A stretch of 43,775 nucleotides of DNA from positions 1 through 43,775 of the forward strand of contig DATLTI010000228.1 in NCBI GenBank assembly GCA_035533675.1, written 5' to 3'. The notes under the pieces are model-generated. The model was given only the letters and a program-made list of their open reading frames with translations, did no database searches and had not been told where the DNA came from. The stretch is from Acidimicrobiales bacterium. GTDB taxonomy: Bacteria; Actinomycetota; Acidimicrobiia; Acidimicrobiales; Bog-793. Positions 3,545-43,775 of this stretch are shown here, piece by piece. A program made the position numbers and the translations under genes. Position 1 is the stretch's first letter, and each line of letters starts with the position of its first letter.

Positions 3545-4474
3545 ATGCTCAAATCGAGTCACATCAAGACATTCTTAGTGGTCCTTAAAACCTCATCCTT
3601 CGCTGATGCGGGTAGAGAACTCGGTTACACCGCTTCGGCGGTGTCACAGCAAATGCTTGCCCTAGAAAAGAGTGTGGGAGTCACGCTCTTTGAGCGACGA
3701 GCCCAGGGAATCAAACCCACGGCTGCAGCTAACACTCTTGCGACACAGGCGAAAAATGCCGCGGCTGCGATGGCTCGGCTTGAACAGCAGGCCGCGTCTA
3801 TCGCCTCTGGTGATGCTGGCACTCTATGGCTCGCCAGTTTTGCCACTGCGGGAGAAAGGCTCGTTCCACACGCAATCGTGGATCTCTTCTTAACTCGGCC
3901 CGCTATTGAAGTTCTACTTGATGAAGGTGAGCCCGATGTCCTGTTGCCACGACTCCTCAAAGGCGAGATGAACTTAGTTTTGGCATACGAGTACAGCGCC
4001 GTTCCGCGACGATGGCCGGATGAACTCGTCCGTCATCTAATTCTACGAGAGGATCTGATCCTGCTTATTCCGTCGCGGCTGACTGACAAGCCCTTCGACG
4101 CACGTTCTGGTCTTACATCGCTGGCCAAGGAAAGGTGGATTGCGACGGACGCCGGCACGGCTGGTGCCACATCTCTCAATTACGTGTGTGCGGCCAATGG
4201 TTTCTCGCCTCACGTGGCCTTTCGCAGTAACAACTACGCGACGATTACTGGGTTGGTCGCTGCAGGCCTCGGCGTTGCCATCGTTCCGGCACTTGGGTAC
4301 GACCCAACACCCAACGTAGTAGCGCGAAGGTTCGACGCCAAATTTGCTTCACGAACGGTTTATGCGTTACACACTTCTGAAGACGAACACCTTCTTCTCA
4401 CGACAGTCATCTCCTCGCTTAAAAGAGCAGCAAAGAGAATAGATACGAGCCAGCTCGAGAAACTTGGTAAGTGA
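3545..4474 (+). CDS. LysR-family transcriptional regulator
   Basis: N-terminal LysR HTH (IKTFLVVLKTSSFADAGRELGYTASAVSQQMLALEKSVGVTLFERR) plus a substrate-binding domain of the expected length; divergent from the ABC operon. Confidence 0.9.
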   Translation: MLKSSHIKTFLVVLKTSSFADAGRELGYTASAVSQQMLALEKSVGVTLFERRAQGIKPTAAANTLATQAKNAAAAMARLEQQAASIASGDAGTLWLASFATAGERLVPHAIVDLFLTRPAIEVLLDEGEPDVLLPRLLKGEMNLVLAYEYSAVPRRWPDELVRHLILREDLILLIPSRLTDKPFDARSGLTSLAKERWIATDAGTAGATSLNYVCAANGFSPHVAFRSNNYATITGLVAAGLGVAIVPALGYDPTPNVVARRFDAKFASRTVYALHTSEDEHLLLTTVISSLKRAAKRIDTSQLEKLGK

Positions 4475-9430: not shown

Positions 9431-9455
9431 CCGTTGCTGACAGCGTTGTTGACGG
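9431..9455. repeat. 25-nt element CCGTTGCTGACAGCGTTGTTGACGG (two 11-bp-phased units)
   Basis: Differs at 2 positions from the copy at 28388-28412. Related half-sites are TTGCTGAC at 9379-9386 and inverted CGTCAACG at 9396-9403. Confidence 0.6.
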
Positions 9456-28279: not shown

Positions 28280-28302
28280 ACGTTGCTGACTGCGTTGCTG
28301 AC
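28280..28302. repeat. 23-nt unit CGTTGCTGACTGCGTTGCTGACG (copy 1)
   Basis: Internally two 11-bp-phased GCGTTGCTGAC units; identical to 28389-28411. Confidence 0.7.
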
Positions 28303-28388
28303 GAAATTTTTGCCCGTGCCCTTGCACGTTGTGCAAAGGGTCATTCGAAGTACCATCTAGAACCTCCATTGCATGATGCATTCCTCAT

Positions 28389-28411
28389 CCGTTGCTGACT
28401 GCGTTGCTGAC
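28389..28411. repeat. 23-nt unit CGTTGCTGACTGCGTTGCTGACG (copy 2)
   Basis: Perfect direct repeat of copy 1, 109 nt downstream. Confidence 0.7.
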
Positions 28412-28539
28412 GGAGTGGTGGTTCACTTCTGAGACCCGCGAAAGTCATCGCGAAACGCCCACGACAGGGACGAGTACCGTGCGCACCCCGTACCTCGCTT
28501 CGCCATCGACGTCGAGACTTCGCCAATCGAACGACCAAG

Positions 28540-30828: not shown

Positions 30829-31907
30829 ATGACACCATCCACTCGTTCCAAGACGTCCGTGCCGACAACGACGAGCCGACGCGTGCGCCCGCGCCGGGAC
30901 TTCGAGGCGTTGACGCAACGACGACTCCGCGCAGGCAAGATGTTCGAGAAGGGTTCATCCCAAGCCGACGTCGCTCGTGAGTTGGGCGTGTCGCGAGAGA
31001 CCGCTTCGCAGTGGCAGGCCACGTGGCGCGAGCACGGCATCGACGGACTGCGCGGCGCACAGCGCGCCGGGCGCCTGCCTCGACTCAGCGATGAGCAGCT
31101 CGTTAAGGTCGAGTTGGCCCTCTCGAAGGGACCCACGCGTAACGGCTTTGCGACCGAGCTGTGGACGCTCGCTCGAGTCGCGACGGTGATCGAGAAGGTG
31201 ACCGGCGTCAGCTATTCGACGACCCAGACGTGGTCGATCCTGCGGACACGTCTCGGCTGGAGCCGTCAGCGTCCCGCGCGAAGGGCCCTTGAGGCTGACC
31301 AGGACGCCATCGCGGCCTGGGCCCGAGACCGGTGGCCCGTGGTAAAAAAAACGCCAGACGGCGCCGGGCGTGGATCGTCTTCGAAGACGAGTCGGGCTTC
31401 TCGCTCCTCCCCTCGGTGAGGGCCACCTGGGCGCCGCGGGGCCACACCCCCGTGCTCACCCACCATTTCAACTGGAAGCGACTCTCGATGGCGAGTGCTC
31501 TCGCCTTCGCCCCCGATGGGTCCGATGCATCCCTCGTCTTTTCTATGCGACCGGGCTCCTTCAACGACGAGGCGCTGATCGAGTTCCTCGGTGAGCTGCA
31601 CGATCTGATGAAGAGTCAGAAGGTGACGTTGATCTGGGACGGACTGACCTCTCATCGCAGCAAGAAGATGAAGGCGTATCTGAAGACCCAACGCCACTGG
31701 CTCGTCACCGAGCGACTCCCGCCCTACGGGCACGACCTCAATCCGGTCGAACAAGTCTGGGGCAATCTGAAGAACCGCGAGCTGGCCAATCTCTGTCCTG
31801 ACTCCGTGGAAGAGGCGGCGGTGTTCGCCGACGACGGGCTCCTGCGAATCGGCGAGGATACCCGCTTGTGCTTCTCATTCCTAAAGCACTGCGGTCTTTC
31901 GTTATGA
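30829..31907 (+). CDS. IS630-family transposase in two frames (orfA 30829-31419; orfB frame to 31907), joined by a -1 shift at an A-run
   Basis: orfA carries the HTH/winged-helix domains. orfB carries the DDE triad context (VFEDESGF, LIWDGLTSH, DLNPVEQVW). The frames overlap at GGTAAAAAAAACG (A-run 31344-31351). The fused reading ...RDRWPVVKK/NARRRRAWIVFEDESGF matches intact IS630 transposases. Confidence 0.8.
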
Positions 31908-31940: not shown

Positions 31941-32018
31941 GTCGCGCTCGGAACGCCAACCGCCTCGGCGCAGCGACGGTTTCTAGGTGCGCACTGCGAT
32001 TTTCCCGGATTTCTTGGC

Positions 32019-32110
32019 GGGCGAGGGGGGACTTGAGAATCCGCTGAGGTCCTTTCGGACCCTCGTCCACTTTCCGACTAACCCCCACCCTGTTAGCGGG
32101 GTCATTGGTC
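32019..32110 (-). repeat. tRNA-Leu 3'-half-like repeat, copy A (diverged)
   Basis: The plus strand GGGCGAGGGGGGACTTGA is identical to the complement of the tRNA-Leu 3' end. It is followed by a GAGGTCC-TTTC-GGACC hairpin and a second CCCC...GGGG hairpin, collinear with copies B and C. Confidence 0.7.
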
Positions 32111-32197
32111 ATGGCGCGAGATGAAAGCGGAATGCGACGTGCGAGGATCGTGGGCGTAGCCGGGTTCGCGCGAGGGGTGGTATGCGATACTTCCTGA

Positions 32198-35100
32198 ATG
32201 TCCGCGCTCGAGCCAGGTCCCGCGTCGTTGGTGGGATCACTGCCCGAGGGTACGGTGACCGTGCTCTTTACGGACCTGGTCGCGTCGACACAACTTAACC
32301 AGAGCCTGGGCGACGACGTCGCCAACGTTGTTCGCCAGGAGGTTGAACAACTCGCGATGACCTCCATCGAGCGTCACGGGGGTGTCGTGGTCAAGGGCCT
32401 CGGCGACGGACTGATGGTCGCGTTCCAGTCCGCCCGCCGGGCGGTGGCGTGTGCGCGGGAGATTCAGTCCAGTCTGCGCGAGCGCAACCGTGAGCGGCCG
32501 TCCCGCCAAGCCGTGATGCGCATCGGCCTTCACACCGGAGAGGTCATTGAGGACGACGGCGACCTGCACGGTGAGACCGTGATCATCGCCAAGCGCATCG
32601 AGGGTCTGGCGCCACCGGGCGGCATCTTCGCCTCAGAGACGGTTCATGGAGTCTTGGGAACGGCGCGCGCCGAGCTGATCGATCGCGGCGAGTTCGAGTT
32701 GAAGGGCATCGAGGAGCCCTGGCGGCTCTTCGAGGTGCCGCTTGTCGAGGCCCCGGACCTTCGGGTGCTGAGGGACTCCGAACGCTCGCCTTACGTCGGA
32801 CGCGTCCGCGAGCAGGAGATCTTCGCCGACTTGGTGGCCCGGACTCGGGAGGGTCGCGGCGCCATGGTGCTTGTCTCGGGCGAGGCCGGCGTCGGCAAGA
32901 GCCGCTTCGTGAGCGAGGGCGCGTCGCTTGCCCGGGAGTACCAGATGTCGGTGCTCGAGGGTCACTGCATCGAGATGGACACGCCGCCGCCCTACCAGCC
33001 GCTCGTCGAGCAGCTCGACCAGGTCGCCCGGGGCCTCTCTTCGGAGGACTTCCGTGAGGTGCTGGGAGAGAACGCGGCTGAGGTGGCCCGACTCATGCCT
33101 GAGATCCTGCGCCTTTACGACGACGTCGGCGAGTCGCCCACGTTGCCGCCTGATCAAGAGCGGCGCTACCTCCTGCACGCCTTCTGTCGATTCGTCGAAC
33201 GCAACGCCCGGCGCCAGCCCCTGGTGTTGTGCTTCGAAGACCTGCACTGGGCGGATGAGTCGAGCCTGCAGCTCATCACTGAGCTCGCCCAGATCGCGAG
33301 CGAGTTGCCGCTCCTGCTCGTCGGAACGTACCGACCGGGCGACGTCGGGACCGGCCATCCCTTGTTGAGGGTCCGCGAGGACCTGGCGCGTCGGCGCCTG
33401 GCCACCGAGGTCCGCCTGGACGCGTTGAGCGCCAGCGACGTGGCTCACCTGCTGGAGGGCCGAGCGGGACAGCCCCCGCCGACCGAGCTGGTCACCCTCG
33501 TCTACGACGAAACCGAGGGCAATCCCTTCTTCGTCGAGGAGATCTTCCTGCACCTCAAGGAGAGGGGCGTCCTCTTCGACGACGCGGGTGGCTGGCGCGA
33601 GGGGGTGGCGATCGCCGACACCGAGGTGCCGGCCACCGTACGCCTGGTCATCGAGCGCCGGCTCGAGAGGGTCGGCGCCGACGCCCACCGGGCCCTTACC
33701 GCCGCGGCGGTTATCGGACGCCAGGCGAGCCTCGACCTGCTCCTGCTCGTGGCCAGCCTGGATGAGGACCCGCTCCTCGACGCTCTTGAAGAGGCCGAGC
33801 ACGCCAGCCTCGTCACTTGCCACACCCAGGGCCGCTCGATTGTCTACAACTTTGTCCATGAGCAGATTCGTCAGACCCTGCTGGCCAACCAGTCGGGTCC
33901 GCGCCGTCAGCGACTCCACGCCCGTGTCGCCGACGCGCTCGAAGAGGTCTGGGGAGCCGACGCGGGCGAGCACGCCGCCGACATCGCCCATCATCTGCTG
34001 CTTGCGGGTGCTGTGATCGCCCTCGAGAGAACCCTCGATTACCTGGAGATCGCCGCGCGTAACGCTCTGTCGGCGGTCGCGCCCGAAGAAGCTATTCGCC
34101 ACGTCGACGCGGCGCTCGACCTCCTGGCGGGCGGCGACCCCGGACATCGGGCCACCCTGTTGGCGCTGCGGGCGCGCGCCCACCGGGCTATTCCTCGTAT
34201 CGACGAGGCGCTGGCGGACCTCACCGCCGCACTGGCCCTGGCCAGCGCCGGCAAGTCCCACGACGAGATCCTTCGCCAGCGAGCCGACTTGTACTTGGAT
34301 CTCTTCAACGGACCCGCGGCCTCGGCCGACCTTTCGACCGTGCTGGAGCACGTGCGCGCCAGGGGCGACCAGGTCACTGAGCTCCAAACGCTTCTAGCCC
34401 TGGGACGCGCGAACTACGTGCGTGCCCTTGATGAACGCGAGTATGCCCTGGTGTCACGCCAGACCTACGAGGCCGCTCACACGCTCGCCGTGGAGCTGGG
34501 TGACCCTCGAGCTCAGGTCGAAGCACTCCTTCCGACTCGATGGTTCCGCGACTACTGGACGGACTACCGGGACACGGCGACCGCCAACATCAGAGAGGTG
34601 GTGCGCCTCGCCGACCAGGTCGACGACGAGCGGCTCGCCATTGAGATCGAGCTCGCCGCCGTAGAACTCGCAGATAGAGAAGACGTGACGGTTGCGTTCG
34701 AGCGTCTCGGCGAGCGGATCGCGGCGCTGCGAGATCCCGTGCGCCTCAAGGAGCACTATTTCTTGATGATGTGGCACTACTACCACCGCGGTCGATTCGA
34801 CGACTGTGTGGCAGTCTGCGACCTCGGGATCGACCTGGCCCGTCAACTGGGGTCCGCGCCGGTCCAGTACGGATCGATCAAGGCGCTGGCCTTGATCGAC
34901 GCGGGTCGCTACGACCTCGTCGAGGCCGCGTTGGACGAGGAGGTGACCGACGACGAACACCCCTTCGGCCAGGCCAGCCAGGCCTTCGCGCGGACCCACT
35001 TCCTGGCCGGACTCGAGGCGTGGGGTCCCGCGACGACCCAGGCGCTGGACGCCATGCGCCGCGCCGCGGAAGTGTCGCGGGTCTGGATGCAGCGCGGCAT

Positions 35101-35608
35101 CTTGAACGACGCGCTCGTCGTGGGCGCGCACGCCGGCGCCGCCGTGGCCGAGGAGTTGGCCGAGATCGAGAGCATCGCCGCCTTGTCGGGGGTCGTTCCT
35201 AGCGCCTGGACGTTGGCCGAGATCGATCTGGCGGCGGGCCGGGCGGACGAGGCACGGGACCGGCTCGTCGGGTATGTCGGGGCGCTCGAAACCGACGACG
35301 ACCCCCTCGAACTCGCCCACGCCTTCGAGTGCCTCGCTCGGACATTCGTCGATCTCGCCGACTGGGCCAGCGTGCTCGCCGTGGCCGATCGGGGACTGGC
35401 GCTCGTCGAGGTGACGGGCCAACGACCGGTGCAGTGGCGCCTGCGCCGATGTCGCGCTGAGGCCCTCGAACACGTGGGGCGGGTCGACGACGCGCGAGTC
35501 GAACGGGACCGAGCGGCTGACGAGTTTGCGGCCCTGTCGCGGCTCATCGGCGATGACTCGCTGCGGGCGTGGTTTCTTTCTCAGCCGTGGGCTGTCGCTT
35601 CTGGGTAG
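32198..35608 (+). CDS. Class III adenylate/guanylate cyclase domain fused to a STAND/AAA_16 ATPase and TPR-like C-terminal region (1136 aa)
   Basis: Cyclase motifs VTVLFTDLVAST and VVKGLGDGLMVAF, P-loop SGEAGVGKSRF, Walker B LVLCFEDLHWADESS, and a long helical-repeat tail. No LuxR HTH is visible at the C-terminus. Confidence 0.85.
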   Translation: MSALEPGPASLVGSLPEGTVTVLFTDLVASTQLNQSLGDDVANVVRQEVEQLAMTSIERHGGVVVKGLGDGLMVAFQSARRAVACAREIQSSLRERNRERPSRQAVMRIGLHTGEVIEDDGDLHGETVIIAKRIEGLAPPGGIFASETVHGVLGTARAELIDRGEFELKGIEEPWRLFEVPLVEAPDLRVLRDSERSPYVGRVREQEIFADLVARTREGRGAMVLVSGEAGVGKSRFVSEGASLAREYQMSVLEGHCIEMDTPPPYQPLVEQLDQVARGLSSEDFREVLGENAAEVARLMPEILRLYDDVGESPTLPPDQERRYLLHAFCRFVERNARRQPLVLCFEDLHWADESSLQLITELAQIASELPLLLVGTYRPGDVGTGHPLLRVREDLARRRLATEVRLDALSASDVAHLLEGRAGQPPPTELVTLVYDETEGNPFFVEEIFLHLKERGVLFDDAGGWREGVAIADTEVPATVRLVIERRLERVGADAHRALTAAAVIGRQASLDLLLLVASLDEDPLLDALEEAEHASLVTCHTQGRSIVYNFVHEQIRQTLLANQSGPRRQRLHARVADALEEVWGADAGEHAADIAHHLLLAGAVIALERTLDYLEIAARNALSAVAPEEAIRHVDAALDLLAGGDPGHRATLLALRARAHRAIPRIDEALADLTAALALASAGKSHDEILRQRADLYLDLFNGPAASADLSTVLEHVRARGDQVTELQTLLALGRANYVRALDEREYALVSRQTYEAAHTLAVELGDPRAQVEALLPTRWFRDYWTDYRDTATANIREVVRLADQVDDERLAIEIELAAVELADREDVTVAFERLGERIAALRDPVRLKEHYFLMMWHYYHRGRFDDCVAVCDLGIDLARQLGSAPVQYGSIKALALIDAGRYDLVEAALDEEVTDDEHPFGQASQAFARTHFLAGLEAWGPATTQALDAMRRAAEVSRVWMQRGILNDALVVGAHAGAAVAEELAEIESIAALSGVVPSAWTLAEIDLAAGRADEARDRLVGYVGALETDDDPLELAHAFECLARTFVDLADWASVLAVADRGLALVEVTGQRPVQWRLRRCRAEALEHVGRVDDARVERDRAADEFAALSRLIGDDSLRAWFLSQPWAVASG

Positions 35609-35640
35609 TCTGGGGCGACCAGAGCGAGCCGGGGGGCGTG

Positions 35641-36840
35641 ATGATGGACTCCGTGGTTCTGTGCGAGGGTGATCCCTCTCAGGTCGCGATGAACACCGTG
35701 CGGGTCCAACGTGCTCGCGAGCTCCTCCATTCGCACGTCGAGGGCGGGAATACGCCGACGCTCGTGGCCGTGGTGGCCCGCCACGGCGTGATCGTGCTCG
35801 CCGAGGCCATCGGTCAGCGAGGTCCGGGACTGGGGCCAGTAGAGCTCGATGACCCGTTCAACGTGTTCTCGGTGACCAAGCCCTTCACCGCGACCATGGT
35901 GATGATGCTCGCCGAGGACGGACTGCTCAGCATCAATCGGCCGGTCGTGGACTACCTGCCCGAGATGACGAGGGAGGGTAACGACCGGATCCTGCTCTCG
36001 CACCTGCTCACGCACACGTCGGGCTTCGACGGCGAGACCATCTACCCCGTCATTGTTGAGCGGTTCAAGAGGGGCGAAGTGTCCGTACCTCCTGCGGGTA
36101 TCGACTTCTACTCGCACGCGATGCTCGACGCCGCGTGGGATGCGCAGCGTTCTTATGACGTCGGGAGCCGGATGGTTTACAGCGGCCACAACTACAGCCT
36201 GCTGGGCGAGGTCGTGCGCCGCGTCAGCGGCGAGACCCTCGATGCCTTCTCGCGTCGACGCATCTTCGAGCCCCTCGGCATGGCCAGCACGAGCTTCTGC
36301 CTCAGTACGGACCAGGCCGCCCGCCGGGTTCGCCGCGCGCCGGACCTTCCGGGCGGCCAGCCCTACGACGAGGATGGGTGGCCCCACTCCGAGGCTCCCG
36401 AGTGGGAGTGCCTGCAAGGCGGAAGCAACGGGCTCAAGACGAGCACCCGCGACCTGGCGGTCTTCGCTCAGATGTTCCTTAACGGGGGTCGTTACGGTGA
36501 CGCGCGCGTCCTCAGCCGCGCGGCGGTGGCCGCGATGACGCGCAACCAGACGTCCGGCGTCCCCGTGGACATCTTTGGCCAGCGTCACCTCGAATCGGGC
36601 TGGGGCTACGGCTGGAGCGTCAACGTCGGCGAGAAATGGGCCTACCATGGACTTGACCTCGCGCCCCATGGCACGTTCGGCCACGGTGGGTGGGGTGGCA
36701 GTTACTTCGGCGTCGACCCGACGCACGGGCTCGTCTTCGCGACGAACGAACTCGCCACCGGCGTGAACGACTATGGCGAGGCCGCTTCGGTGGTCTTGGA
36801 CCGTTTCATGAACGTGATGTACTCGAGCCTCGAGGACTGA
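35641..36840 (+). CDS. Beta-lactamase-fold serine hydrolase (class C / EstB / D-aminopeptidase-like), paralog 1
   Basis: S-x-x-K motif SVTK, Y-x-N-like YSGHNYS, and HGG in place of KTG (GHGGWGGS). ATG at 35641 aligns with the paralog 2 N-terminus. It starts 33 nt after the cyclase stop. Confidence 0.85.
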   Translation: MMDSVVLCEGDPSQVAMNTVRVQRARELLHSHVEGGNTPTLVAVVARHGVIVLAEAIGQRGPGLGPVELDDPFNVFSVTKPFTATMVMMLAEDGLLSINRPVVDYLPEMTREGNDRILLSHLLTHTSGFDGETIYPVIVERFKRGEVSVPPAGIDFYSHAMLDAAWDAQRSYDVGSRMVYSGHNYSLLGEVVRRVSGETLDAFSRRRIFEPLGMASTSFCLSTDQAARRVRRAPDLPGGQPYDEDGWPHSEAPEWECLQGGSNGLKTSTRDLAVFAQMFLNGGRYGDARVLSRAAVAAMTRNQTSGVPVDIFGQRHLESGWGYGWSVNVGEKWAYHGLDLAPHGTFGHGGWGGSYFGVDPTHGLVFATNELATGVNDYGEAASVVLDRFMNVMYSSLED

Positions 36841-36901
36841 TGCCGACCGGACCTACGACCTCATCAGACATTCGAGCCGAGACGGACCGGAGGGGTGAAT
36901 C

Positions 36902-38107
36902 ATGAGCGACGTCGACGTGTTGCGCGAGGGAGAACCGAGCGAGGTCGCCATGGACCCGGCCCGCGTAGAGATGGCGCGCCAACTGCTGCGCTCGCACGTC
37001 GAGGACGGGAGTACGCCGACACTCGTGGCCGTGGTGGCCCGTCACGGAGTGATCGTGCTCGCCGAAGCCCTAGGTCAGCGCGGTCCTGGGATGGGGCCGG
37101 TCCAACTTGATGACCCCACCAACGTGGCGTCGATTTCCAAATCGATCACTGCCGCACTCGTAATGATGTTTGCTGAGGACGGTGTGTTGAGCATCAACCG
37201 GCCCGTCGTCGACTATCTGCCCGACATGCCCCGTGAGGGCAACGACCGGATCCTGCTCTCGCACCTGCTCACCCACACGTCGGGTTTTGACAGCGAGGTC
37301 CTGAAGGCGGCCTCAATGGAGCGAGTCAAGAGCGGGGAGTATTCGCCGTGTCCCGAGGGCGTCGACCTCATGACGCATCTCATGTTGGTGACGAACTGGG
37401 ACACCCCGCGCAGTTGGGACGTGGGCAGCCGGATGAACTACTGCAACTTGAACTTCTCCCTGCTGGGCGAGGTGTTGCGTCGCGTCAGCGGCGCGTCGCT
37501 GGACGCACTCGCGCGACGCCGGCTCTTCGAGCCCCTCGGCATGGTGAACTCGGGATTCGTCCTCGACGACGCACAGGCCCGGCGGCGAATCCGGCGAGGG
37601 ACCGACGTTCCTGGCGGCCAGGCGCTCATCTTTGATGACTACTGGCTACCGGGATTTGAGACTCCGGAGTTCGCGGAGATGCAAGACGGCGCGGGCGGTC
37701 TCAAGACCAGCGCCAGTGACGTCGCGATCTTTGGCCAGATGCTGCTCAACGCTGGGCGTTACGGTGAGGCGAAGGTCCTTAGCGCGGCGTCCGTGGCTGC
37801 AATGATGCGCAACCAGACACCCGGTATTCCCGTGGACATCTTTGGCCAGTACCACCCCGAGTCGGGCTGGGGGTACGGCCTGAGTGTCAACGTCGGCGAG
37901 AAGTGGGCCCACTGGCGGGGTGGGCTCAACTCGATTGGCAGTGTCGGGCACGGCGGCTCGGGCGGCAGCATCTTTAGCATCGACCCGGTCACGGGCGTCA
38001 ACATCGTGGTGCTCGAGATCGCGACGCGGATGAACGAGTACGGCGAGGCGCCCTCGTGCGTGGCCGACCGCTTCGAGAGTGTGATCTACTCCTCACTCGT
38101 GGACTGA
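36902..38107 (+). CDS. Beta-lactamase-fold serine hydrolase, paralog 2
   Basis: SISK motif and GHGGSGGS; collinear with paralog 1 over its full length; GGAGGGG RBS. Confidence 0.85.
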   Translation: MSDVDVLREGEPSEVAMDPARVEMARQLLRSHVEDGSTPTLVAVVARHGVIVLAEALGQRGPGMGPVQLDDPTNVASISKSITAALVMMFAEDGVLSINRPVVDYLPDMPREGNDRILLSHLLTHTSGFDSEVLKAASMERVKSGEYSPCPEGVDLMTHLMLVTNWDTPRSWDVGSRMNYCNLNFSLLGEVLRRVSGASLDALARRRLFEPLGMVNSGFVLDDAQARRRIRRGTDVPGGQALIFDDYWLPGFETPEFAEMQDGAGGLKTSASDVAIFGQMLLNAGRYGEAKVLSAASVAAMMRNQTPGIPVDIFGQYHPESGWGYGLSVNVGEKWAHWRGGLNSIGSVGHGGSGGSIFSIDPVTGVNIVVLEIATRMNEYGEAPSCVADRFESVIYSSLVD

Positions 38108-38180
38108 CTGAGCCGTCACTCTCAATGGGTCGCTCCGGTTCGGGTTGGCGACAGGGGCGCGCAGGCGAAGGCGCCGAGTG

Positions 38181-38275
38181 GTGGGCGAGGGGGGACTGCA
38201 CCCCCTCCAGAGGTCCTTTTGGACCCCTCGACCACATCCGGACGAACACGCACCCTTTTGGGGTGTGGGTTGGTC
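38181..38275 (-). repeat. tRNA-Leu 3'-half-like repeat, copy B
   Basis: GTGGGCGAGGGGGGACTG...CCAGAGGTCCTTTTGGACCCCTCGACCACATCCGGACGAACACGCACCCTTTTGGGGTGTGGGTTGGTC; nearly identical to copy C. Confidence 0.8.
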
Positions 38276-38369
38276 ATCTGCTTAATTTAGCGAGGACGAA
38301 TTGTTGGCGCCATTCGTATGTGGGCTTCGGCTGAAACAACTCCGAGTCATTGTCTATTTGGCAGTGATC

Positions 38370-39020
38370 TCAGGAGAGTCGCTTGAGCTGATCATGGAGA
38401 TCGCGGAGCATCTCTCTAATTTCGCGAGCCGACGTCAGGTCGTTTTTGTCTAACCGGTCTCCTAGAGCGTTTACCAGATGCTGCCCCTCAAGTTCGAAAA
38501 GAGCCAGTTCGACAGAATTGGCTGACGGCGCTTCGCTGGGAGTCGCGCTCGTCTGGGATTGATGAATCGGTACGTCGTAATGCCGTCGTTCCGGACGACG
38601 ACCCTGACCTTTGAGGGCCATACGGACCAAACTCTCGAACCGGAAGATGGTGGATTTGGATCTCCCCCGATGTATGTCGGCCAGCAACCCAACCGCACAA
38701 CTACCCCCGCATTCAATGGCTGCGACCACGTCTGATCCCATTCGGCTTTCTATGACATTAAGCAGGGATGTATCGCCGGCAACTATGCGCCGAAGTACAA
38801 GAGTCCCTTGGCCGTCTTGCACCATACCGAGTGCGGTCAAAGAAGCACGGATTTGCGCCCAAGTCCGACTATCAGTTGTGGGGGGACAGACCAGTGGCTT
38901 CAAGAGGTCTTCTCGCCCGAGAGATTTGAGGTAAGACATCAATGACGCAAAGGTTGCTTGAGGTATGCGGAGCAACGGCTCTGGCGTGGGCACCCGTAGT
39001 TGATCTTCCTGCATCGACAT
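38370..39020 (-). CDS. Hypothetical protein (216 aa), no family recognised
   Basis: Clean ORF in the AT-richer islet with a charged helical C-terminus. Divergent from the DUF5678-like gene. Confidence 0.55.
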   Translation of the reverse strand: MSMQEDQLRVPTPEPLLRIPQATFASLMSYLKSLGREDLLKPLVCPPTTDSRTWAQIRASLTALGMVQDGQGTLVLRRIVAGDTSLLNVIESRMGSDVVAAIECGGSCAVGLLADIHRGRSKSTIFRFESLVRMALKGQGRRPERRHYDVPIHQSQTSATPSEAPSANSVELALFELEGQHLVNALGDRLDKNDLTSAREIREMLRDLHDQLKRLS

Positions 39021-39031
39021 GGTGCCTAATT

Positions 39032-39166
39032 CTACGTAAGTTAGGCCAATTACGGCGAGCGAAGCGTAATAATTGGCCCTGAAAGGGCTTCTAACCCGCT
39101 AAAATACATCGTCATGCCCAACTAAGCAGCATGCGAACTTACGTGAAAGAATGGTAGAATTACGTG
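39032..39166. promoter_or_regulatory. Divergent control region with three TTACGT-core sites and two hairpins
   Basis: CTACGTAAGTT (39032-39042) is the inverted partner of AACTTACGTG (39136-39145). A further AATTACGTG lies at 39158-39166, 21-22 nt further on. There is a 9-bp stem GGCCAATTA / TAATTGGCC (39044-39078) and GCCCT-GAA-AGGGC (39076-39088). Confidence 0.35.
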
Positions 39167-39190
39167 TATGTTATTTGGGAGGTTGCCGTA

Positions 39191-39457
39191 ATGCGGATTC
39201 GAATGCAGTGGACGAAGCGCCTTAGACGCCTGTACCGTGGAAAGATGTCTGCCCGCGACGAACACTTGAAGATGGAGCAGGCATTTGTTGAGTGCGCTGG
39301 GCAGTGGGTGGCTGTTGATCGAGAGACCGGGGATGTCATTGCCGCTCGCAGCACTCCTTACGATCTCTCCGCGTATATAAAGTCCGCCGGGATTCGCAGT
39401 GTGGACATAGTTAGGGCGCCATCTGAGCAAGAGCCTGAAATGGTTGGATTCGGCTGA
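39191..39457 (+). CDS. Small DUF5678-like protein (88 aa)
   Basis: The core ...FVECAGQWVAVDRETGDVIAARSTPYDLSAYIKSAGIRSVDIVRAPSE matches my recollection of the DUF5678 pattern (G-[KQ]-W-V-A-[IV] ... V-[VI]-A ... then [VI]-x-[RK]-[VA]-P). ATG at 39191 follows a GGGAGG RBS; the track start is 39164. Confidence 0.6.
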   Translation: MRIRMQWTKRLRRLYRGKMSARDEHLKMEQAFVECAGQWVAVDRETGDVIAARSTPYDLSAYIKSAGIRSVDIVRAPSEQEPEMVGFG

Positions 39458-39506
39458 AAAGTGAGTCGGCTAGGTCGATTAGACCGCTGAATGCCTTGGA
39501 TTATGC

Positions 39507-40022
39507 GTGACAATTCCTGCTCTTCCTTGGCGATATCCCTTCCAGGTAGACGCACCACGTCTGCGACCAATTCTTCGGCCGATTGTGAGCGCCCAACTTA
39601 GAGGCGCTGATTCGAGCACTCCATTTAAGGCTCTCGTTGATTCGGGTTCCGAGCACGTTTTGGCCGCCCCCTGGCTGGTCTCGGACGCTGGTGTTGATTT
39701 GCGGAATCCAAAATACAGTCTTCGGCTCGGAATTGGCGGTGAAAATCCGCTGGTGAATTTCACGGACCTTAAAATTCGACTGCTTCATCCGCAGGGGGAC
39801 GATGATCATTTCATCGAGTGGGAGACCGAGGTTGGTTTTCCTGAGCATTGGCGGGCACCTTGGCCAATGCTGCTCGGACAACATGGATTTTTTGATCAAT
39901 TTACGGTGTCAATGCATCGTGCTGCGGCACTGACGGTGATCGAAGAATGGGGTACGTTCGATCAGCGTTTTGGTATAGAAGTTCGCGAGTCCGATGATCA
40001 CACGAGGCGTAACCCACAATAA
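39507..40022 (+). CDS. Retropepsin-like (clan AA) aspartic protease domain protein
   Basis: Active-site context FKALVDSGSEHVLA (D-S-G) and a C-terminal MLLGQHGFFDQFTVSM block equivalent to the [IL]LG.d.L..f dimerisation strand of bacterial retropepsin-like proteins. GTG start lies 50 nt after the preceding stop. Confidence 0.65.
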   Translation: MTIPALPWRYPFQVDAPRLRPILRPIVSAQLRGADSSTPFKALVDSGSEHVLAAPWLVSDAGVDLRNPKYSLRLGIGGENPLVNFTDLKIRLLHPQGDDDHFIEWETEVGFPEHWRAPWPMLLGQHGFFDQFTVSMHRAAALTVIEEWGTFDQRFGIEVRESDDHTRRNPQ

Positions 40023-40066
40023 TTCATTGAAGTTAGCGCTTTAGTCGAATCCGGCAGAAGATGAAA

Positions 40067-40417
40067 TTAAACCCAATCGCCGTATTCGATTTCCCTGTTA
40101 AGAGCCGTATCCCAATCGATCGGCCATCCGTTTGTGTCGTAGCCGTTGGGTGTCGCGGTGAAATCGAACTCGTACCGAAAGTATTTTCCGTCATCGGGGC
40201 GCTGAAACCTCAATAAGCCCGTGCACATAGCGCCAGCTTGCACGTCTTTCCATGTCAAGTCGGGCATATCAGGAAGAGGAACCTCAACAGATTTACCCCC
40301 CTGCAAAATATGACTCGTCACCGTCCACGTCGTCGCCGGATCTGGACCGCGACCATTTACAGATATTGAAGCCTTTACAAGTTCAATGCGAATAGGGAAC
40401 GCCGCCGTGTTTTCCAT
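40067..40417 (-). CDS. Beta-rich hypothetical protein; the reading frame stays open upstream to 40804 and there encodes two TM helices
   Basis: The track ORF starts at ATG 40417, but the frame has no stop up to TAA at 40805-40807. The extension reads ...WAYKRTRYDHLRGVLAGFVVFPLAAAVV...AGVVAGVVTLVAVALLFGLIAFIVASKEQR.... A well-placed ATG at 40793 (AAGGGGG RBS) is one nucleotide out of frame. Confidence 0.5.
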   Translation of the reverse strand: MENTAAFPIRIELVKASISVNGRGPDPATTWTVTSHILQGGKSVEVPLPDMPDLTWKDVQAGAMCTGLLRFQRPDDGKYFRYEFDFTATPNGYDTNGWPIDWDTALNREIEYGDWV

Positions 40418-40925
40418 GACGGCATAGAACCGATAGTTGCGGTTACCTTTGACCGCCGATGGCGAATGTCCGGCCTTGGCGTGGACCAGTCCGAGGGAGT
40501 ACTTCGTCTCGTCGTCCGCCGAAGTGTCCGATGTCTTTCGCTTACTCAGTTGAAGTCTTAAGACATCTCTTTGTTCCTTTGAAGCGACAATGAAAGCGAT
40601 AAGCCCAAACAGGAGGGCGACGGCGACGAGAGTAACTACGCCTGCAACAACTCCGGCTTCGATCCGTGTGTGAAGTGGTGACCCTGTTTTGGGAGTAACC
40701 GTCGCATTAACTACAGCCGCAGCGAGGGGGAAGACTACGAAGCCCGCTAGGACTCCGCGTAGGTGGTCGTAGCGCGTGCGTTTGTACGCCCATAAAATGC
40801 CCCCTTATTGGGGTCCAGTTTTGGGCGCTCAGCCATTGAAAACACCTTAGGAGAGGCGATTGTGAAGAGTCTTGAATACAACTATTCTCGCGTTGGTGGT
40901 GTAACGGCCAATAGGCCCCTGCGTC

Positions 40926-41020
40926 GTGGGCGAGGGGGGACTGGGTCACCCCCAGAGGTCCTTTTGGACCCCTAGACCACATCCGGACGAACACGCACCC
41001 TTTTGGGCTGTGGGTTTGTC
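40926..41020 (-). repeat. tRNA-Leu 3'-half-like repeat, copy C
   Basis: Same 95-nt unit as copy B. The flanking TCGTGGGCGAGGGGGGACT (19 nt) is identical to the genuine tRNA locus. Confidence 0.8.
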
Positions 41021-41102
41021 GTGGCAGTGACGTTACATCATTCATTCGGCAAAGCGCAGCGAAAGGGGGAACGCGCAAATTCGCAACTGGGAACCGGCCG
41101 GC

Positions 41103-43097
41103 TCAGTTCGATCTCGCCGCCCCGCGGACCTTGTTGCCTCCGTGGCGTCCCAGGAAATCGAGGATGCGCCACAGGCGATCCTCATTCTGCGACGGCGGTG
41201 CACCGAAGGGGCCCACGGCCAGGTGTGAACCGCCCGGATACCGGACGTACTCCACCTTCTTGCCCATCAACTTGAGGGTGGTGTAGAACTCGTCGGACTG
41301 TGACGGTGGCGTACGCAAGTCCCCCTCGCTGACGTGAAGGAGTACCGGGGTGGTGACTTTTCGAGCGTGGGTGATCGGAGAGCGCTCCCGGTAGAGGGCC
41401 GTCGCACGCCAGGGGTCGCCGCCGACGGTCTCGGCCAGCCACGCTCCGCTGTCGCTGGTTCCGTACTCGGAAAAGAGATTGATCACCGGTGCACCGATGA
41501 TCGCGGCCTTGAACCGGTTGGTCTGGCCGACGATGAATGATGACATATAACCGCCGTAGGAGTAGCCCCCGACGAAAAGGCGCCGCTCGTCGACGCGGCC
41601 GCGCCGGAGGGCGTCGCCGACGCAGGCCATCAGATCGTGGTAATCCTCACCGCCCCAGTCGCCGTTGACCGCAAGGGCGAATTCCTCGCCGTAACTGGTC
41701 GAACCCCGGGGGTTGGGAAGGATGACCGTGTACCCCGCCGCGACCAGAGTCTGGTAGTAGGGAAAGAGCCCGGAGTGCGGGTTTATTCCGTGGGGACCGC
41801 CGTGGATTTCGAGATAGAGCGGGGTCTTGCCGTTCCTGCGTCCCGGTGAGGTGCGCTTTGGTGCCATCTCGAAATACTCGATCTCGAGGCCGTCGCGGGA
41901 CTTGACGCGCCGTCGGCGTGTCCCTGTCAGCTCCACCACGGCGAGCAACTCGTCGCTGGCTCGGCTGATCCGCGTCGGGGTGACTGACGCGTCGTCGAGC
42001 GCTCGGACGAACACTTCGTCAGGTGTGTCAACCCAGCCCGCGGTGTAGGCGAGGAGTCGTTGTCCCCGACTTCGGAAGAGCGAGAATCCGGTGACCCGCG
42101 TATCACCGTCGACGAGGGCTGATCCGCTGCGGCGCCCTATCCGGGCTCGCACGACGATTATCGACCCGCGGTCGACGATGCCAAAAAGTAGTTCGCTGGG
42201 CGAGAGCCAGGTGAAGGGAATCCTCTCGAACACGGGCCGGTCAAGGTCTGGCGCCACCCGCACCGGCTCGCCTCCCCGCTGCACGTCGAAAACGAGTAGC
42301 TGGTGGTGCCGTCCCGCCATCTGACTGACCTGGGGGACTGCGGCCACCGCGACGCGCCCTCCATCGGGGGAGAACCTAGGAGTGCAGGGCTCACCGAGCG
42401 CGCCCGAGAGCCGCTGAACCCGTCCACCCGCTGCCGGGACTATCCAGACCTTCCCGCGCCAGAAGACGTCATTGCGTCGGCGCGATCGGTCGGTCACAAA
42501 GACGATCTTCTTCCCATCAGGCGACCAACTCGGCTGTTGGTGGTCGTAGTCGCCCGAAGTGATCTGACGGACGAATCGAGTGGCGACGTGGCAAACAAAG
42601 AGATGGGTGCGCCCGTCGATCCAGCCGCGCCCGTCGAACCGGTTGAACGCGCCGCGCATGACGCGCGGCGCGTTGGTTACCTTCGGATCCTTCGTCGCCG
42701 GATCGGGCAGACCCACCGAGACCACCAGAACGATCTCTTTCCCGTCAGGCGACCATTCGTACCAGCTGACTGGCCCGGGGGTATCCACCTTCGTGGCGCT
42801 GCCGCCGCCGAGCGGAGCGAGGAAGAGGGACGGGGGTCCGTCGTCGGCGGACAGGTACGCCAGGTACCGTCCGTCGGGTGACCATCGCGGCGAGAGGTCG
42901 TGGGGACCATTGGTGAATTGGCGAGGCTCATCGGACCCGTCGCTGGCAGCGACCATGACCTTCGAGACTGGGGAGTCCTTGTCAAGATCGAAGGACATTT
43001 CGGTCCAAGCCACTCGTTCCCCGTCGGATGAGATCTGGGGGTCCGAGACCCCTCTGGTCAGCTTGAGGTCGTCAGGCCTCATTGGGCGTCGCACCAT
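41103..43097 (-). CDS. S9-family serine peptidase (prolyl oligopeptidase / acylaminoacyl-peptidase type) with N-terminal beta-propeller
   Basis: Nucleophile elbow GGYSYGGYM, and downstream Asp (SEGDLRTP) and His (GGSHL) contexts. Repeated SPDG propeller blades (WSPDGRYLAY, WSPDGKEIV, WSPDGKKIV, FSPDGGRVA). ATG at 43097 (MVRRPMRPDDL) was chosen; the track ORF extends to 43334 with a low-complexity Arg/Pro leader. Confidence 0.85.
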   Translation of the reverse strand: MVRRPMRPDDLKLTRGVSDPQISSDGERVAWTEMSFDLDKDSPVSKVMVAASDGSDEPRQFTNGPHDLSPRWSPDGRYLAYLSADDGPPSLFLAPLGGGSATKVDTPGPVSWYEWSPDGKEIVLVVSVGLPDPATKDPKVTNAPRVMRGAFNRFDGRGWIDGRTHLFVCHVATRFVRQITSGDYDHQQPSWSPDGKKIVFVTDRSRRRNDVFWRGKVWIVPAAGGRVQRLSGALGEPCTPRFSPDGGRVAVAAVPQVSQMAGRHHQLLVFDVQRGGEPVRVAPDLDRPVFERIPFTWLSPSELLFGIVDRGSIIVVRARIGRRSGSALVDGDTRVTGFSLFRSRGQRLLAYTAGWVDTPDEVFVRALDDASVTPTRISRASDELLAVVELTGTRRRRVKSRDGLEIEYFEMAPKRTSPGRRNGKTPLYLEIHGGPHGINPHSGLFPYYQTLVAAGYTVILPNPRGSTSYGEEFALAVNGDWGGEDYHDLMACVGDALRRGRVDERRLFVGGYSYGGYMSSFIVGQTNRFKAAIIGAPVINLFSEYGTSDSGAWLAETVGGDPWRATALYRERSPITHARKVTTPVLLHVSEGDLRTPPSQSDEFYTTLKLMGKKVEYVRYPGGSHLAVGPFGAPPSQNEDRLWRILDFLGRHGGNKVRGAARSN

Positions 43098-43518
43098 ACT
43101 GTCAAGTCCCTTCTCTTCGGCCGAAGTCGGCACAATAGGAAATTGTGTCACCTTCGCGCACGCTTCGCTCGGCCGACTCCGCGCAGGGGCACTGGTGTAG
43201 ACAGCGTACGAAGAAGTTGACACTTGATCCGCGCGAGGTCTACCGCCGCGACGGCGACGTCGATCGTGTTTCGGGGACGGTATTGGACGGGCGATTGAGA
43301 AGGGGGCTCTCGTCGGCGGGATCACTTCGGGCATGGACAGCGGTCAGTTGAAGAAACGCGTTCTTGGTTTCCTCGACCGGAAGGAGGTCAGGGATCTCGA
43401 CGACTGTGTGGAAAGGACTTCCGCAACTGCGAAAGGGCGCCGGCCGCCTCCGGTCAAAGTGAGGAAGGCGACCACGAAGGTTGCGACTAGTCCCGTTTGG
43501 AGAACGCCTCCGTGGTCG

Positions 43519-43602
43519 TGGGCGAGGGGGGACTTGAACCCCCACATCCTTTCGGACACAGGCACCTGAAGCCTGCGCGTCTGCCAATTTCGCCACTCGC
43601 CC
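43519..43602 (-). tRNA. tRNA-Leu (anticodon CAG), 84 nt, CCA not encoded
   Basis: Hand fold of GGGCGAG-TG-GCG-AAATTGGCAGA-CGC-G-CAGGC-TTCAGGT-GCCTG-TGTCCGAAAGGATGT-GGGGG-TTCAAGT-CCCCC-CTCGCCC-A. It has a 7-bp acceptor stem, the long variable arm typical of Leu, and a canonical T-loop. Confidence 0.9.
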
Positions 43603-43689: not shown

Positions 43690-43775
43690 ATGGTTCTTAA
43701 GAGTGTCGAAAACCGCCTTGAGCGTATCTTTGAGCGAACATTTTCGCGACCCTTCAAGAGCGCACTGCAGCCGAT
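43690..43775 (+). CDS. 5' end of an FhaA-like (DUF3662 N-terminal domain) gene, truncated by the window edge
   Basis: ATG follows a GAGGTG RBS. MVLKSVENRLERIFERTFSRPFKSALQP resembles the DUF3662 N-terminus of FhaA. tRNA-Leu next to fhaA is the arrangement recalled from Mycobacterium tuberculosis (leuT / Rv0020c). Confidence 0.5.
   Translation, partial: MVLKSVENRLERIFERTFSRPFKSALQP

Follow-up and report, generated by a model that had tools for sequence, protein, structure and literature searches.

The DNA analysed here, hereafter the window, is a 43,775-nt stretch of contig DATLTI010000228.1 from an Acidimicrobiales bacterium (Bog-793; assembly GCA_035533675.1). It contains one tRNA-Leu(CAG), called by both ARAGORN and Rfam, and this gene (43519-43602, minus strand) does not encode CCA. 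Beside it begins fhaA, its conserved neighbour, which anchors the locus in relatives; FhaA_N/FHA Pfam domains were detected at the homologous loci. Three units of about 108 nt each, named A, B and C, lie downstream of the tRNA in the same orientation and end in its last 16 nt, and the tRNA and units together delimit three cassettes. The features are as follows.

30829..31907 (+): IS630-family transposase in two overlapping frames, with an HTH_33-type N-terminus and a DDE_3 catalytic part
32018..32125 (-): unit A, the outermost and most degenerate probable relic attachment junction
32126..38181: cassette 3 (B to A), three genes, GC 66.9%
32198-35608 (+): adenylate/guanylate cyclase plus AAA_16 STAND-like gene (Pfam), in cassette 3
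35569-36840 and 36902-38107 (+): two paralogous beta-lactamase-fold hydrolase genes (Pfam), in cassette 3
38182..38289 (-): unit B, intact, the best-preserved probable relic
38290..40926: cassette 2 (C to B), orphan ORFs, GC 52.8%
38370-39020 (-), 39122-39430 (-), 39507-40022 (+) and 40067-40417 (-): ORFs of cassette 2
40927..41035 (-): unit C, degenerate, a probable relic attR-type junction
41036..43518: cassette 1 (tRNA to C), one gene, GC 64%
41103-43334 (-): S9 prolyl-oligopeptidase-family peptidase with PD40 repeats (Pfam), in cassette 1
43518 or 43519 to 43602 (-): genuine tRNA-Leu(CAG), called by ARAGORN and by Rfam (RF00005, 53.6 bits)
43690..43775 (+): start of fhaA, MVLKSVENRLERIFERTFSRPFKSALQP..., identical in sequence to the N-termini of P0015-P0021

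The tRNA-Leu(CAG) gene would be the target of integration and would also form the attL side of the cassette nearest to it. At the other end of the array the DDE_3 match corresponds to ORF 31332-31907, and the HTH_33 match found among the window ORFs probably belongs to 30829-31419. Because this IS630 transposase abuts the outer side of unit A, the original chromosomal flank is obscured.

The string GGGCGAGGGGGGACT occurs exactly at 32019, 38183, 40928 and 43520, always on the plus strand, and none of 100 shuffles gave four matches. The 3' end of the tRNA is matched at 16 of 16 nt in units B and C and at 15 of 16 in unit A, so that, as in tRNA-targeting elements, an intact tRNA lies at one boundary and its 3' end is repeated directly, in the same orientation, at the other. 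In unit B a -10 box, TAAATT (38289-38284), precedes an ATG at 38277 that opens a 51-codon frame beginning MTNPHPKRVRVRPDVVEGSKRTSGGGAVPPRPP..., and the tRNA-identical core (38197-38182) is followed by an encoded CCA. Unit C has a -10-like TAACGT (41035-41030), a start codon mutated to ACG (41022), an in-frame TAG, and a last 16 nt (40942-40927) identical to the tRNA 3' end. Unit A has no TANNNT box; its ATG lies at 32112, a 1-nt deletion shifts the frame, and its core (32033-32018) has G in place of the discriminator A. Over 98 nt, units B and C share 91% identity, with three substitutions outside a patch at the T-loop position, and A is homologous to both over the same ~95 nt, less the deleted nucleotide. 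All three contain the hairpin GGTCC-TTTY-GGACC. None was called as a tRNA by ARAGORN or Rfam, three related units from other loci had no Rfam match at E<=1, and there were no further copies elsewhere in the 43.8-kb window.

A preliminary description of this DNA had reported a genuine tRNA-Leu(CAG), recurrence of the string at the three sites besides the tRNA, copies B and C differing by three substitutions outside the T-loop-position patch, copy A as a diverged relative, a variable-arm-like hairpin in all three copies, and copies that are not tRNA genes; all of this agrees with the calls, matches and alignments above. The unit size it gave was too short, as the unit reaches as far as a -10-like box lying about 108 nt away from its tRNA-like end, and the pairing of the second GC hairpin that it described is poorly kept (68% of cells).

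An exact sequence look-up of the S9 peptidase matched no record. Cassette 1 and its unit are also present in contig L013 of a relative, from which cassette 2 is missing, the L013 sequence diverging right after unit C. Searches of the cassette 2 ORFs against Pfam and PHROG gave no family except one sub-threshold Asp_protease_2 match. The B-C block had been called AT-richer, which is true only against its neighbours (52.8% GC versus 64-67%), the block being close to the 1-31 kb background (56.7%). In tblastx comparisons with all loci, the window cassettes matched only L013 (the S9 peptidase) and a cyclase paralogue in L001. All three keep att sites on both sides and lack integration and transfer genes, as do the elements known as CIMEs. 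They are compact, with spacers of 73-184 nt and intact genes. Such compact cassettes are not an obvious product of random decay, which counts against reading them as relics.

As the preliminary description had stated, the window contains no recognisable integrase: a tyrosine-recombinase probe and tblastn with the integrases of related loci found no match, and a Pfam scan of the remaining window ORFs gave no integrase family among the best 25 of 55 families. Sequences of related loci used as queries revealed no remnant of an integrase or of orfX, the gene that precedes it in relatives, in the window cassettes, and no canonical hairpin follows the window tRNA. It is therefore the units alone that place these cassettes in the orfX-integrase family described below.

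Some 35 units turned up across 30 Acidimicrobiales contigs, always in co-oriented arrays and downstream of tRNA-Leu wherever the contig extends far enough, with tRNA-Leu(CAG) lying upstream in L002, L010, L017, L023 and L027. The tRNA-identical block of this family measures 16-22 nt. No unit copies occurred elsewhere in the fetched stretches (each at most ~21 kb long, taken from contigs as long as 187 kb), and a scan of IMG/VR viral contigs for the unit pattern gave 0 matches. Integrases were located using an XerD sequence purely as a probe and then verified by Pfam; candidates near units in L018, L023, L027 and L003, guessed from Pfam, did not prove to be integrases. A complete element is present in L030, where the tRNA-Leu 3' end is followed by orfX, a tyrosine integrase (PF00589), orf116, an AAA_14 ATPase and a full unit; this is the only contig in which an integrase and a full unit bound one insert. 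The order tRNA-Leu then orfX-integrase recurs in L031-L038, L040 and L043, with no distal unit within the 10-kb flanks of the L031, L037 and L043 elements and with a TrwB-like gene in L043 alone. Integrase-less cassettes bounded by tRNA or unit were found in L002, L010, L027 and L053-58 (one to three genes each) and in L018 (four ORFs). Searched by tblastn, the integrase had no relatives in 50,697 phage records and one weak match in 72,556 plasmid records. Together, the ~108-nt unit and the pair of orfX and integrase characterise a family of integrative elements specific to tRNA-Leu that had not been described before.

Comparison of the fhaA-tRNA-Leu locus among relatives, which had been proposed as a check, revealed empty, integrase-occupied and decayed sites. 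Identical FhaA is encoded by occupied (L043) and empty (L044, L048) contigs, and in L020 and L029 a unit stands against the same Meth_synt_2 flank as in that comparison. Contig L059 is the empty form of the L023 lineage. Both flanks are common to L002 and L027 at 92-94% identity, and the cassettes between them differ. Homology of the window with L023 and L049 (91% identity) stops exactly at 43518, the 3' end of the tRNA, and that with L013 (93% identity) runs from the S9 gene through unit C and stops at 40926. The locus is thus polymorphic for presence and absence of inserts, with breakpoints at the att core and an empty site included. Decay is seen as a truncated integrase in L041, as orfX remnants without integrase in L017, L008, L001, L023, L039 and L042, and as truncated units in L002, L010 and L053-58; the window cassettes contain no orfX or integrase remnant of this kind. 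No circular or attP form was recovered, the viral-contig scan included.

The units themselves suggest what the shared arm may be. Of 21 distinct units, 18 have a TANNNT box 5-7 nt upstream of the ATG, a position count that replaced an E. coli-type promoter/terminator scan, uninformative here since it requires a -35 box. Over the 32 codons after the conserved ATG, third positions are the most variable (0.82 versus 0.53, p=0.016), a modest signal drawn from copies that are phylogenetically related. In-frame copies have unit lengths of 96, 93 or 111 nt. At the integrase-bearing side, 9 of 9 junctions place the orfX core in the VPPRP frame, with no stop through the tRNA-derived core into orfX; the orfX linkers of 88, 89, 90 or 96 codons are stop-free, and the other two frames are stopped in 7 of 9 and 9 of 9. 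In L030 the orfX stop overlaps the integrase start (ATGA). Because these junctions run in frame and without a stop into an orfX that overlaps the integrase start, integration appears to split the gene, separating its promoter and first 32 codons from the remainder, a reading derived from integrated forms only. The ~75 nt that B and C share beyond tRNA identity, earlier listed as a misfit, likewise appears to be the element-side arm of the attachment site, comprising the promoter and 5' coding end of an element gene, with TANNNT box, ATG and a codon-periodic frame running into orfX.

An independent small-protein gene was rejected as an account of the unit: the conserved stretch stops at the tRNA-like 3' end, and both tail and stop position vary (33-99 codons). 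An SSV-type split integrase was also rejected, the split ORF being orfX and the integrase lying intact downstream. OrfX is a putative MraZ/AbrB-like DNA-binding regulator, its model resembling MraZ with a weak fold match (E 3e-3, TM 0.45-0.56). A PHROG search of OrfX returned nothing, and there were no database proteins in which a stub starting MTN... is fused to OrfX.

We consider it about 80% probable that A, B and C are relic junctions of serially inserted tRNA-Leu elements, with an arm that would represent the promoter and 5' stub of orfX. The fhaA-proximal tRNA-Leu(CAG) would be the attachment site of the element family. In the free element, the attachment site would lie inside the first gene, orfX, which would overlap the start of the integrase gene; the arm would bring the orfX promoter together with a leaderless ATG and ~27 initial codons, the codons VPPRP would come from the tRNA-identical core, and the remainder of orfX and the integrase gene would lie on the opposite side of the core. 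Each integration would restore the tRNA and put orfX(deltaN)-int behind it, leaving promoter and 5' stub cut off at the distal end, where they would persist as the unit; at the far-end junction the element arm would be followed by the 16 terminal nt displaced from the tRNA. Tandem accretion would have stacked units C, B and A, which bound three inserts without recombination genes. The anatomy of the locus, the unit family, the occupancy states and the breakpoints are observed directly. Transcription from the -10 box is predicted, OrfX may have a regulatory role, and we infer both the recombination chemistry and the route by which orfX and int were lost.

Serial integration into the tRNA 3' end had been suggested in the preliminary description, and it gains support from the occupancy states, empty sites and breakpoints in relatives. 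The missing integrase, held there to be at odds with integration, is accounted for by relatives that carry tRNA-orfX-integrase elements or integrase-less cassettes at the same fhaA-tRNA-Leu locus. A related attP arm kept after integrase loss, offered there as an alternative, is likewise supported.

It is unlikely that the array reflects movement rather than decay, with cassettes of cargo plus unit moved in and out at the tRNA-Leu 3' end by an integrase acting in trans, much as in an integron. The fhaA-proximal tRNA-Leu would then be a cassette platform served by a trans integrase/OrfX, and the unit would have a second role as a portable promoter with a leaderless start, reconnected with the regulator-integrase operon only where junctions are circular or hybrid. 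Integrase-less cassettes do recur, three in the window and others in relatives, with tight spacers and no detectable orfX or integrase debris; different cassettes stand between identical flanks, and att-flanked elements without an integrase are documented in other bacteria as undergoing cis-mobilisation of the CIME type (PMC5704250). However, no cassette was seen in two positions or genomes, orthologous loci aside, no integrase adjoins the array, cassette genes lie on both strands, and the unit is without integron attC features. Several cassettes, moreover, carry truncated units or orfX remnants, which argues for erosion.

A functional tRNA-like small RNA, with its own promoter and a 3' domain mimicking variable arm, T arm and acceptor, copied around the locus, is very improbable. 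A -10-like box does lie upstream of the conserved 5' end, conservation ends at the tRNA-like 3' end, an encoded CCA is frequent among units, pairing of the variable-arm hairpin holds in 98% of cells and includes one compensatory change, and GTGGTCGAG can pair at 8 of 9 positions with the acceptor 3' strand. Against these stand the lack of an Rfam match at the gathering threshold or at E<=1, an RNAalifold covariation term of -0.24, a named structure that is no better than shuffles on any measure (pair counts included), a T-arm region scrambled between subgroups, and codon-periodic variation, in-frame indels and a frame that continues into orfX. The structured RNA family raised in the preliminary description is not favoured by these data. 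Local duplication or unequal crossing-over of the tRNA 3' region, or a dispersed tRNA-derived repeat, without site-specific integration, would explain direct copies that carry the tRNA 3' end, but is highly improbable given that 2.6-6.1 kb of unrelated genes of differing GC separate the units, that the common arm is not tRNA sequence, that the unit occurs at the same locus in many species with empty and integrase-occupied alleles, and that every copy found lies in a co-oriented array, downstream of tRNA-Leu where the contig suffices, with none elsewhere in the 43.8-kb window or the other fetched stretches.

Taken as the mark of serially inserted elements, the ~108-nt unit is a usable marker for the family in uncultured soil and peat Acidimicrobiales. 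The tRNA-Leu hot spot lets empty, occupied, decayed and stacked states be compared within populations. Public gene calls that read through tRNA-Leu (P0007, P0010 and P0014, for example) are artefacts of the architecture.

Repeats of a tRNA 3' end occur behind E. coli tyrT. Short head-to-tail repeats of that type were rejected as a model, the units here being 2.6-6.1 kb apart with genes between them. Among known systems, the locus compares with genomic islands and other tRNA-targeting elements with tyrosine integrases, including the actinomycete elements of the pSAM2/SLP1 type named in the preliminary description. The locus is like these in the targeting of the tRNA 3' end and its restoration upon integration, in the direct repeat of that end at the distal boundary, and in the integrase beside the tRNA in complete relatives, with empty and occupied alleles. 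It is unlike them in its remote integrase lineage, in a tRNA-identical block of only 16-22 nt, in an element arm that appears to be coding, and in that the window keeps scars only.

The arrangement also resembles CIMEs and ICE/IME-type elements joined by tandem accretion (Pavlovic 2004, Bellanger 2011; reviewed in PMC5704250): each block sits between attL and attR without integration or transfer genes of its own, the blocks form a tandem stack at a single site next to the target gene, and related functional elements are present in other genomes. In contrast, the blocks here are much smaller, with one to three genes, and a TrwB-like gene is found only in L043. Integron cassettes are similar as small, often single-gene blocks with a repeated recombination-site-like unit, arrayed at one locus, but here there is no IntI beside the array and no attC-type imperfect palindrome, both strands are used, and the site is tRNA-derived. 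An integron was rejected, the neighbour of the array being fhaA/tRNA-Leu and the window having no IntI-type integrase with attI and Pc. An attC identity of the unit was rejected as well: conservation is confined to a 6-bp tRNA-variable-arm hairpin, and the remaining helices pair in 68-77% of cells without covariation.

The closest parallel to the split gene is in mycobacteriophage BPs and phages related to it, where attP falls within the repressor gene beside int, giving integration-dependent immunity, and integration strips the 3' end of the gene, removing the C-terminal 33 residues (PMC4557955). Here too, as read from integrated forms only, the attP core lies in an ORF that encodes a putative DNA-binding regulator and stands next to the integrase gene in the same orientation, so that integration would alter what the gene can encode. 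Unlike in BPs, it is the promoter and 5' end that are removed, the regulator has an MraZ/AbrB-like fold and is not a relative of BPs gp33, and the elements are not known as phages (0 IMG/VR matches). If the split-gene reading is true, these elements would offer an N-terminal counterpart of the BPs switch: by integrating, they would cut a regulator-integrase operon off from both promoter and start codon, a simple way of tying expression to the integrated or excised state.

ARAGORN and Rfam agree on a single tRNA gene in the window, and the complement of its 3' strand (GGGCGAGGGGGGACT) has four exact matches, at 32019, 38183, 40928 and, within the tRNA gene itself, 43520. All are on the plus strand, and four matches were reached in none of 100 shuffles. 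The other three matches lie in repeats of about 108 nt, units A, B and C, each ending in the last 16 nt of tRNA-Leu. Neither program calls a tRNA in any unit. Units B and C, aligned in the tRNA sense, are 91% identical over 98 nt, and unit A is homologous to them along the same length with a 1-nt deletion. The preliminary description had identified a real tRNA with three co-oriented copies that are not tRNA genes, two close and one diverged, and had listed the genes of the blocks between them; all of this was confirmed.

Features of the window around the tRNA and its repeats
43519-43602, minus strand: tRNA-Leu(CAG)
tRNA to unit C: S9 peptidase gene
unit C to unit B: orphan ORFs
unit B to unit A: cyclase/AAA_16 gene and two paralogous beta-lactamase-fold genes
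30829-31419 and 31332-31907: IS630-family transposase in two overlapping frames, directly abutting unit A on its outer side

The GC content of the three blocks is 64.1% (tRNA to C), 52.8% (C to B) and 66.9% (B to A), with 56.7% over 1-31 kb, differences consistent with separate origins. GC is heterogeneous along the window, at 51-62% in 1-30 kb and 65-68% in 32-38 kb; the stretch at 38.3-40.9 kb, earlier called an AT-rich islet, is lower in GC than the adjoining blocks but near the left-hand background and not unusual in itself. The IS630 transposase, being split, is a pseudogene or else undergoes programmed frameshifting. The tandem beta-lactamase-fold genes (35569-38107) share 72-76% DNA identity over most of their length, indicating a local duplication. 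Additionally, there is an unexplained 74-nt direct repeat (1904-1977 and 2272-2345; 84% identity, 368 nt spacing), and a 25-nt motif, CCGTTGCTGAC(A/T)GCGTTG(T/C)TGACGG, occurs at 9431-9455, 28280-28304 and 28389-28413, the latter two 109 nt apart; the three may form a family of repeats or binding sites.

A structured RNA family, offered earlier as an alternative, is not supported: a variable-arm hairpin is the only element of the units folded by RNAalifold (covariation term -0.24), Rfam has no match to them even at E<=1, and a hand-named four-helix tRNA-like structure exceeded shuffles on no measure.

Related contigs and loci (L001-L059) display the tRNA-Leu site, next to its conserved neighbour fhaA, in several states. 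L030 holds a complete element, which starts inside the tRNA-Leu 3' end and continues through orfX, a tyrosine integrase gene with its ATG overlapping the stop of orfX, an ORF of 116 aa, an AAA_14 ATPase and a full unit into chromosomal genes. OrfX homologues form 14 protein clusters and directly follow fhaA-tRNA-Leu in every contig looked up. An ORF of about 400-410 aa follows orfX in L031-L038 and L040, with a PF00589 match on record for L031-L036 and L040; that of L037/L038 is an integrase homologue (about 65% nucleotide identity to the L043 gene) with no Pfam match. The integrase is truncated in L041, an orfX remnant alone is kept in L039 and L042, such remnants lie directly behind the tRNA or a unit in L017, L023, L008 and L001, and units are truncated in L002, L010 and L053-L058. 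An identical FhaA protein accompanies an occupied site in L043, with orfX-int and a stretch of 10 kb or more that includes a TrwB-like gene, and an empty one in L044 and L048, where the tRNA is directly beside a Meth_synt_2 gene; in L020/L029 that flank (87% identity) adjoins a unit rather than the tRNA. L059 represents the L023/L049-52 lineage with its site empty, and L002 and L027 carry different inserts between common flanks (92-94% identity). The window itself aligns with L013 (93% identity) from the S9 gene to the end of unit C, diverging at 40926, and with L023 (91%) from fhaA to the end of the tRNA, diverging at 43518. Taken together, these complete, decayed, empty and replaced states and the window's breakpoints establish that insertion is site-specific, at the 3' end of the tRNA, and that the units are its distal junctions. 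The serial integration proposed in the preliminary description is thus supported, and the empty sites it suggested looking for exist.

In L017 a tRNA-Thr(GGT) gene (4183-4255) lies within the cassette, with tRNA-Leu and the orfX remnant on one side and the unit on the other. The large integrase-bearing elements of L043 (1-9790; TrwB-like coupling-protein fragment, DEAD/ResIII helicase, N6_N4 methyltransferase, HTH_3/Peptidase_M78 gene) and, at the same site, L031 (11940-20543; Eco57I, T5orf172/RAMA and DUF5677 genes) carry cargo suggestive of conjugation and defence. L016 (2411-3712) and L011 (13374-13925) each have, 4-6 kb past a unit and oppositely oriented, a second tyrosine integrase that differs from the one described above. 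Its two copies are 91% identical, and L016 showed no further unit on its far side.

Across Acidimicrobiales the units make up a conserved family. Among 185,579 species-representative genomes, a pattern from the non-tRNA part matched only four contigs, each of an Acidimicrobiales MAG and three with the full unit; a metagenome scan added 26 contigs, and a viral-contig scan gave zero matches. A profile search of all fetched DNA yielded about 35 full units, co-oriented within each contig without exception. Arrays are frequent, with three units in the window, two each in L001, L008 and L018, and two implied by L029 and L024 together. A tRNA-Leu(CAG) lies upstream of the unit in the same orientation in L002, L010, L017, L023 and L027.

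The roughly 75 nt outside the tRNA-identical core resemble a promoter and gene start. In the tRNA sense, 18 of 21 distinct copies have a TANNNT hexamer 5-7 nt before a conserved ATGACCAAC, a spacing typical of leaderless actinobacterial transcripts in mycobacterial transcription start site maps. The frame from the ATG reads MTNHTPNRVRVSREVVEGSERTSGGPQ-VPPRP, and variability is highest at third codon positions (0.82 vs 0.53 bits; one-sided Mann-Whitney p=0.016); neither of the other phases reaches significance. In-frame unit lengths are 96, 93 or 111 nt, with evidently degenerate copies as exceptions. Past the tRNA or unit, canonical element arms keep this frame open over 88-96 codons until the conserved OrfX core (MTxNGLSLKHQSD...) is reached. 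It is continuous in 9/9 distinct junctions, with linkers differing by whole codons only and no stops, and the other two frames contain stops in 7/9 and 9/9. This is evidence for a probable coding role of the frame. The stub as a gene in its own right was ruled out, because conservation ends at the tRNA-like end and the tail beyond is arbitrary. For the 178-aa OrfX core (mean pLDDT 72 in AlphaFold), the nearest structural match is MraZ, a tandem AbrB/SpoVT-type DNA-binding factor, but the similarity is weak (Foldseek E 3e-3, probability 1.0, TM 0.45-0.56).

From integrated forms we infer that attP probably lies inside orfX. Integration would then part the promoter and first ~32 codons, left in the unit, from orfX(deltaN)-int behind the tRNA, a putative split-gene switch suggested by the same integrated forms. 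No circular form was recovered. Four public 'proteins' (P0007, P0010, P0013, P0014) that read through tRNA-Leu (...AELADAQASGACIRKDVGVQVPPRP...) into OrfX are annotation artefacts, called because the frame is open across the attachment core. Right behind the 3' end of the tRNA or unit, canonical arms also contain the variable-arm hairpin in inverted form (GAGGTCC-TTTT-GGACC), which may serve as a terminator or as a binding site of the core type.

Inverted hairpin copies
L030, 32-60
L037, 2539-2560
L001, 1082-1105
L008, 6838-6860
L010 (tRNA sense), 119-145

In L006 (~1250-1320) and L008 (~3740-3800), a further copy of orfX is preceded by a degenerate stretch of another kind that resembles a tRNA 3' end (translated ...VPETMEPQTPSPTT); it may represent a second type of arm or a junction of earlier date.

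In the window, unit B is intact (TAAATT, ATG, 51-codon open frame). In C the ATG has become ACG and an in-frame TAG is present; A has no -10 box and is frameshifted. The units thus fit relics, the outermost, A, being most eroded. As reported before, no integrase is detectable anywhere in the window, and its compact cassettes contain no orfX or integrase debris. Loss of the recombination module from each cassette, for example by deletion from the core, is favoured in view of the decay series in relatives; mobilisation in trans, CIME-like or integron-like (PMC5704250), is a less likely route.

The elements are of a known kind, the tRNA-targeted tyrosine-integrase elements, and tandem accretion of att-flanked, integrase-less remnants has been described (PMC5704250). 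The integrase lineage has no close relatives in phage or plasmid collections. For the proposed attP within a gene, the closest mechanistic parallel is integration-dependent immunity in phage BPs, where the repressor gene loses its 3' end (PMC4557955), whereas here a different regulator would lose its promoter and 5' end.
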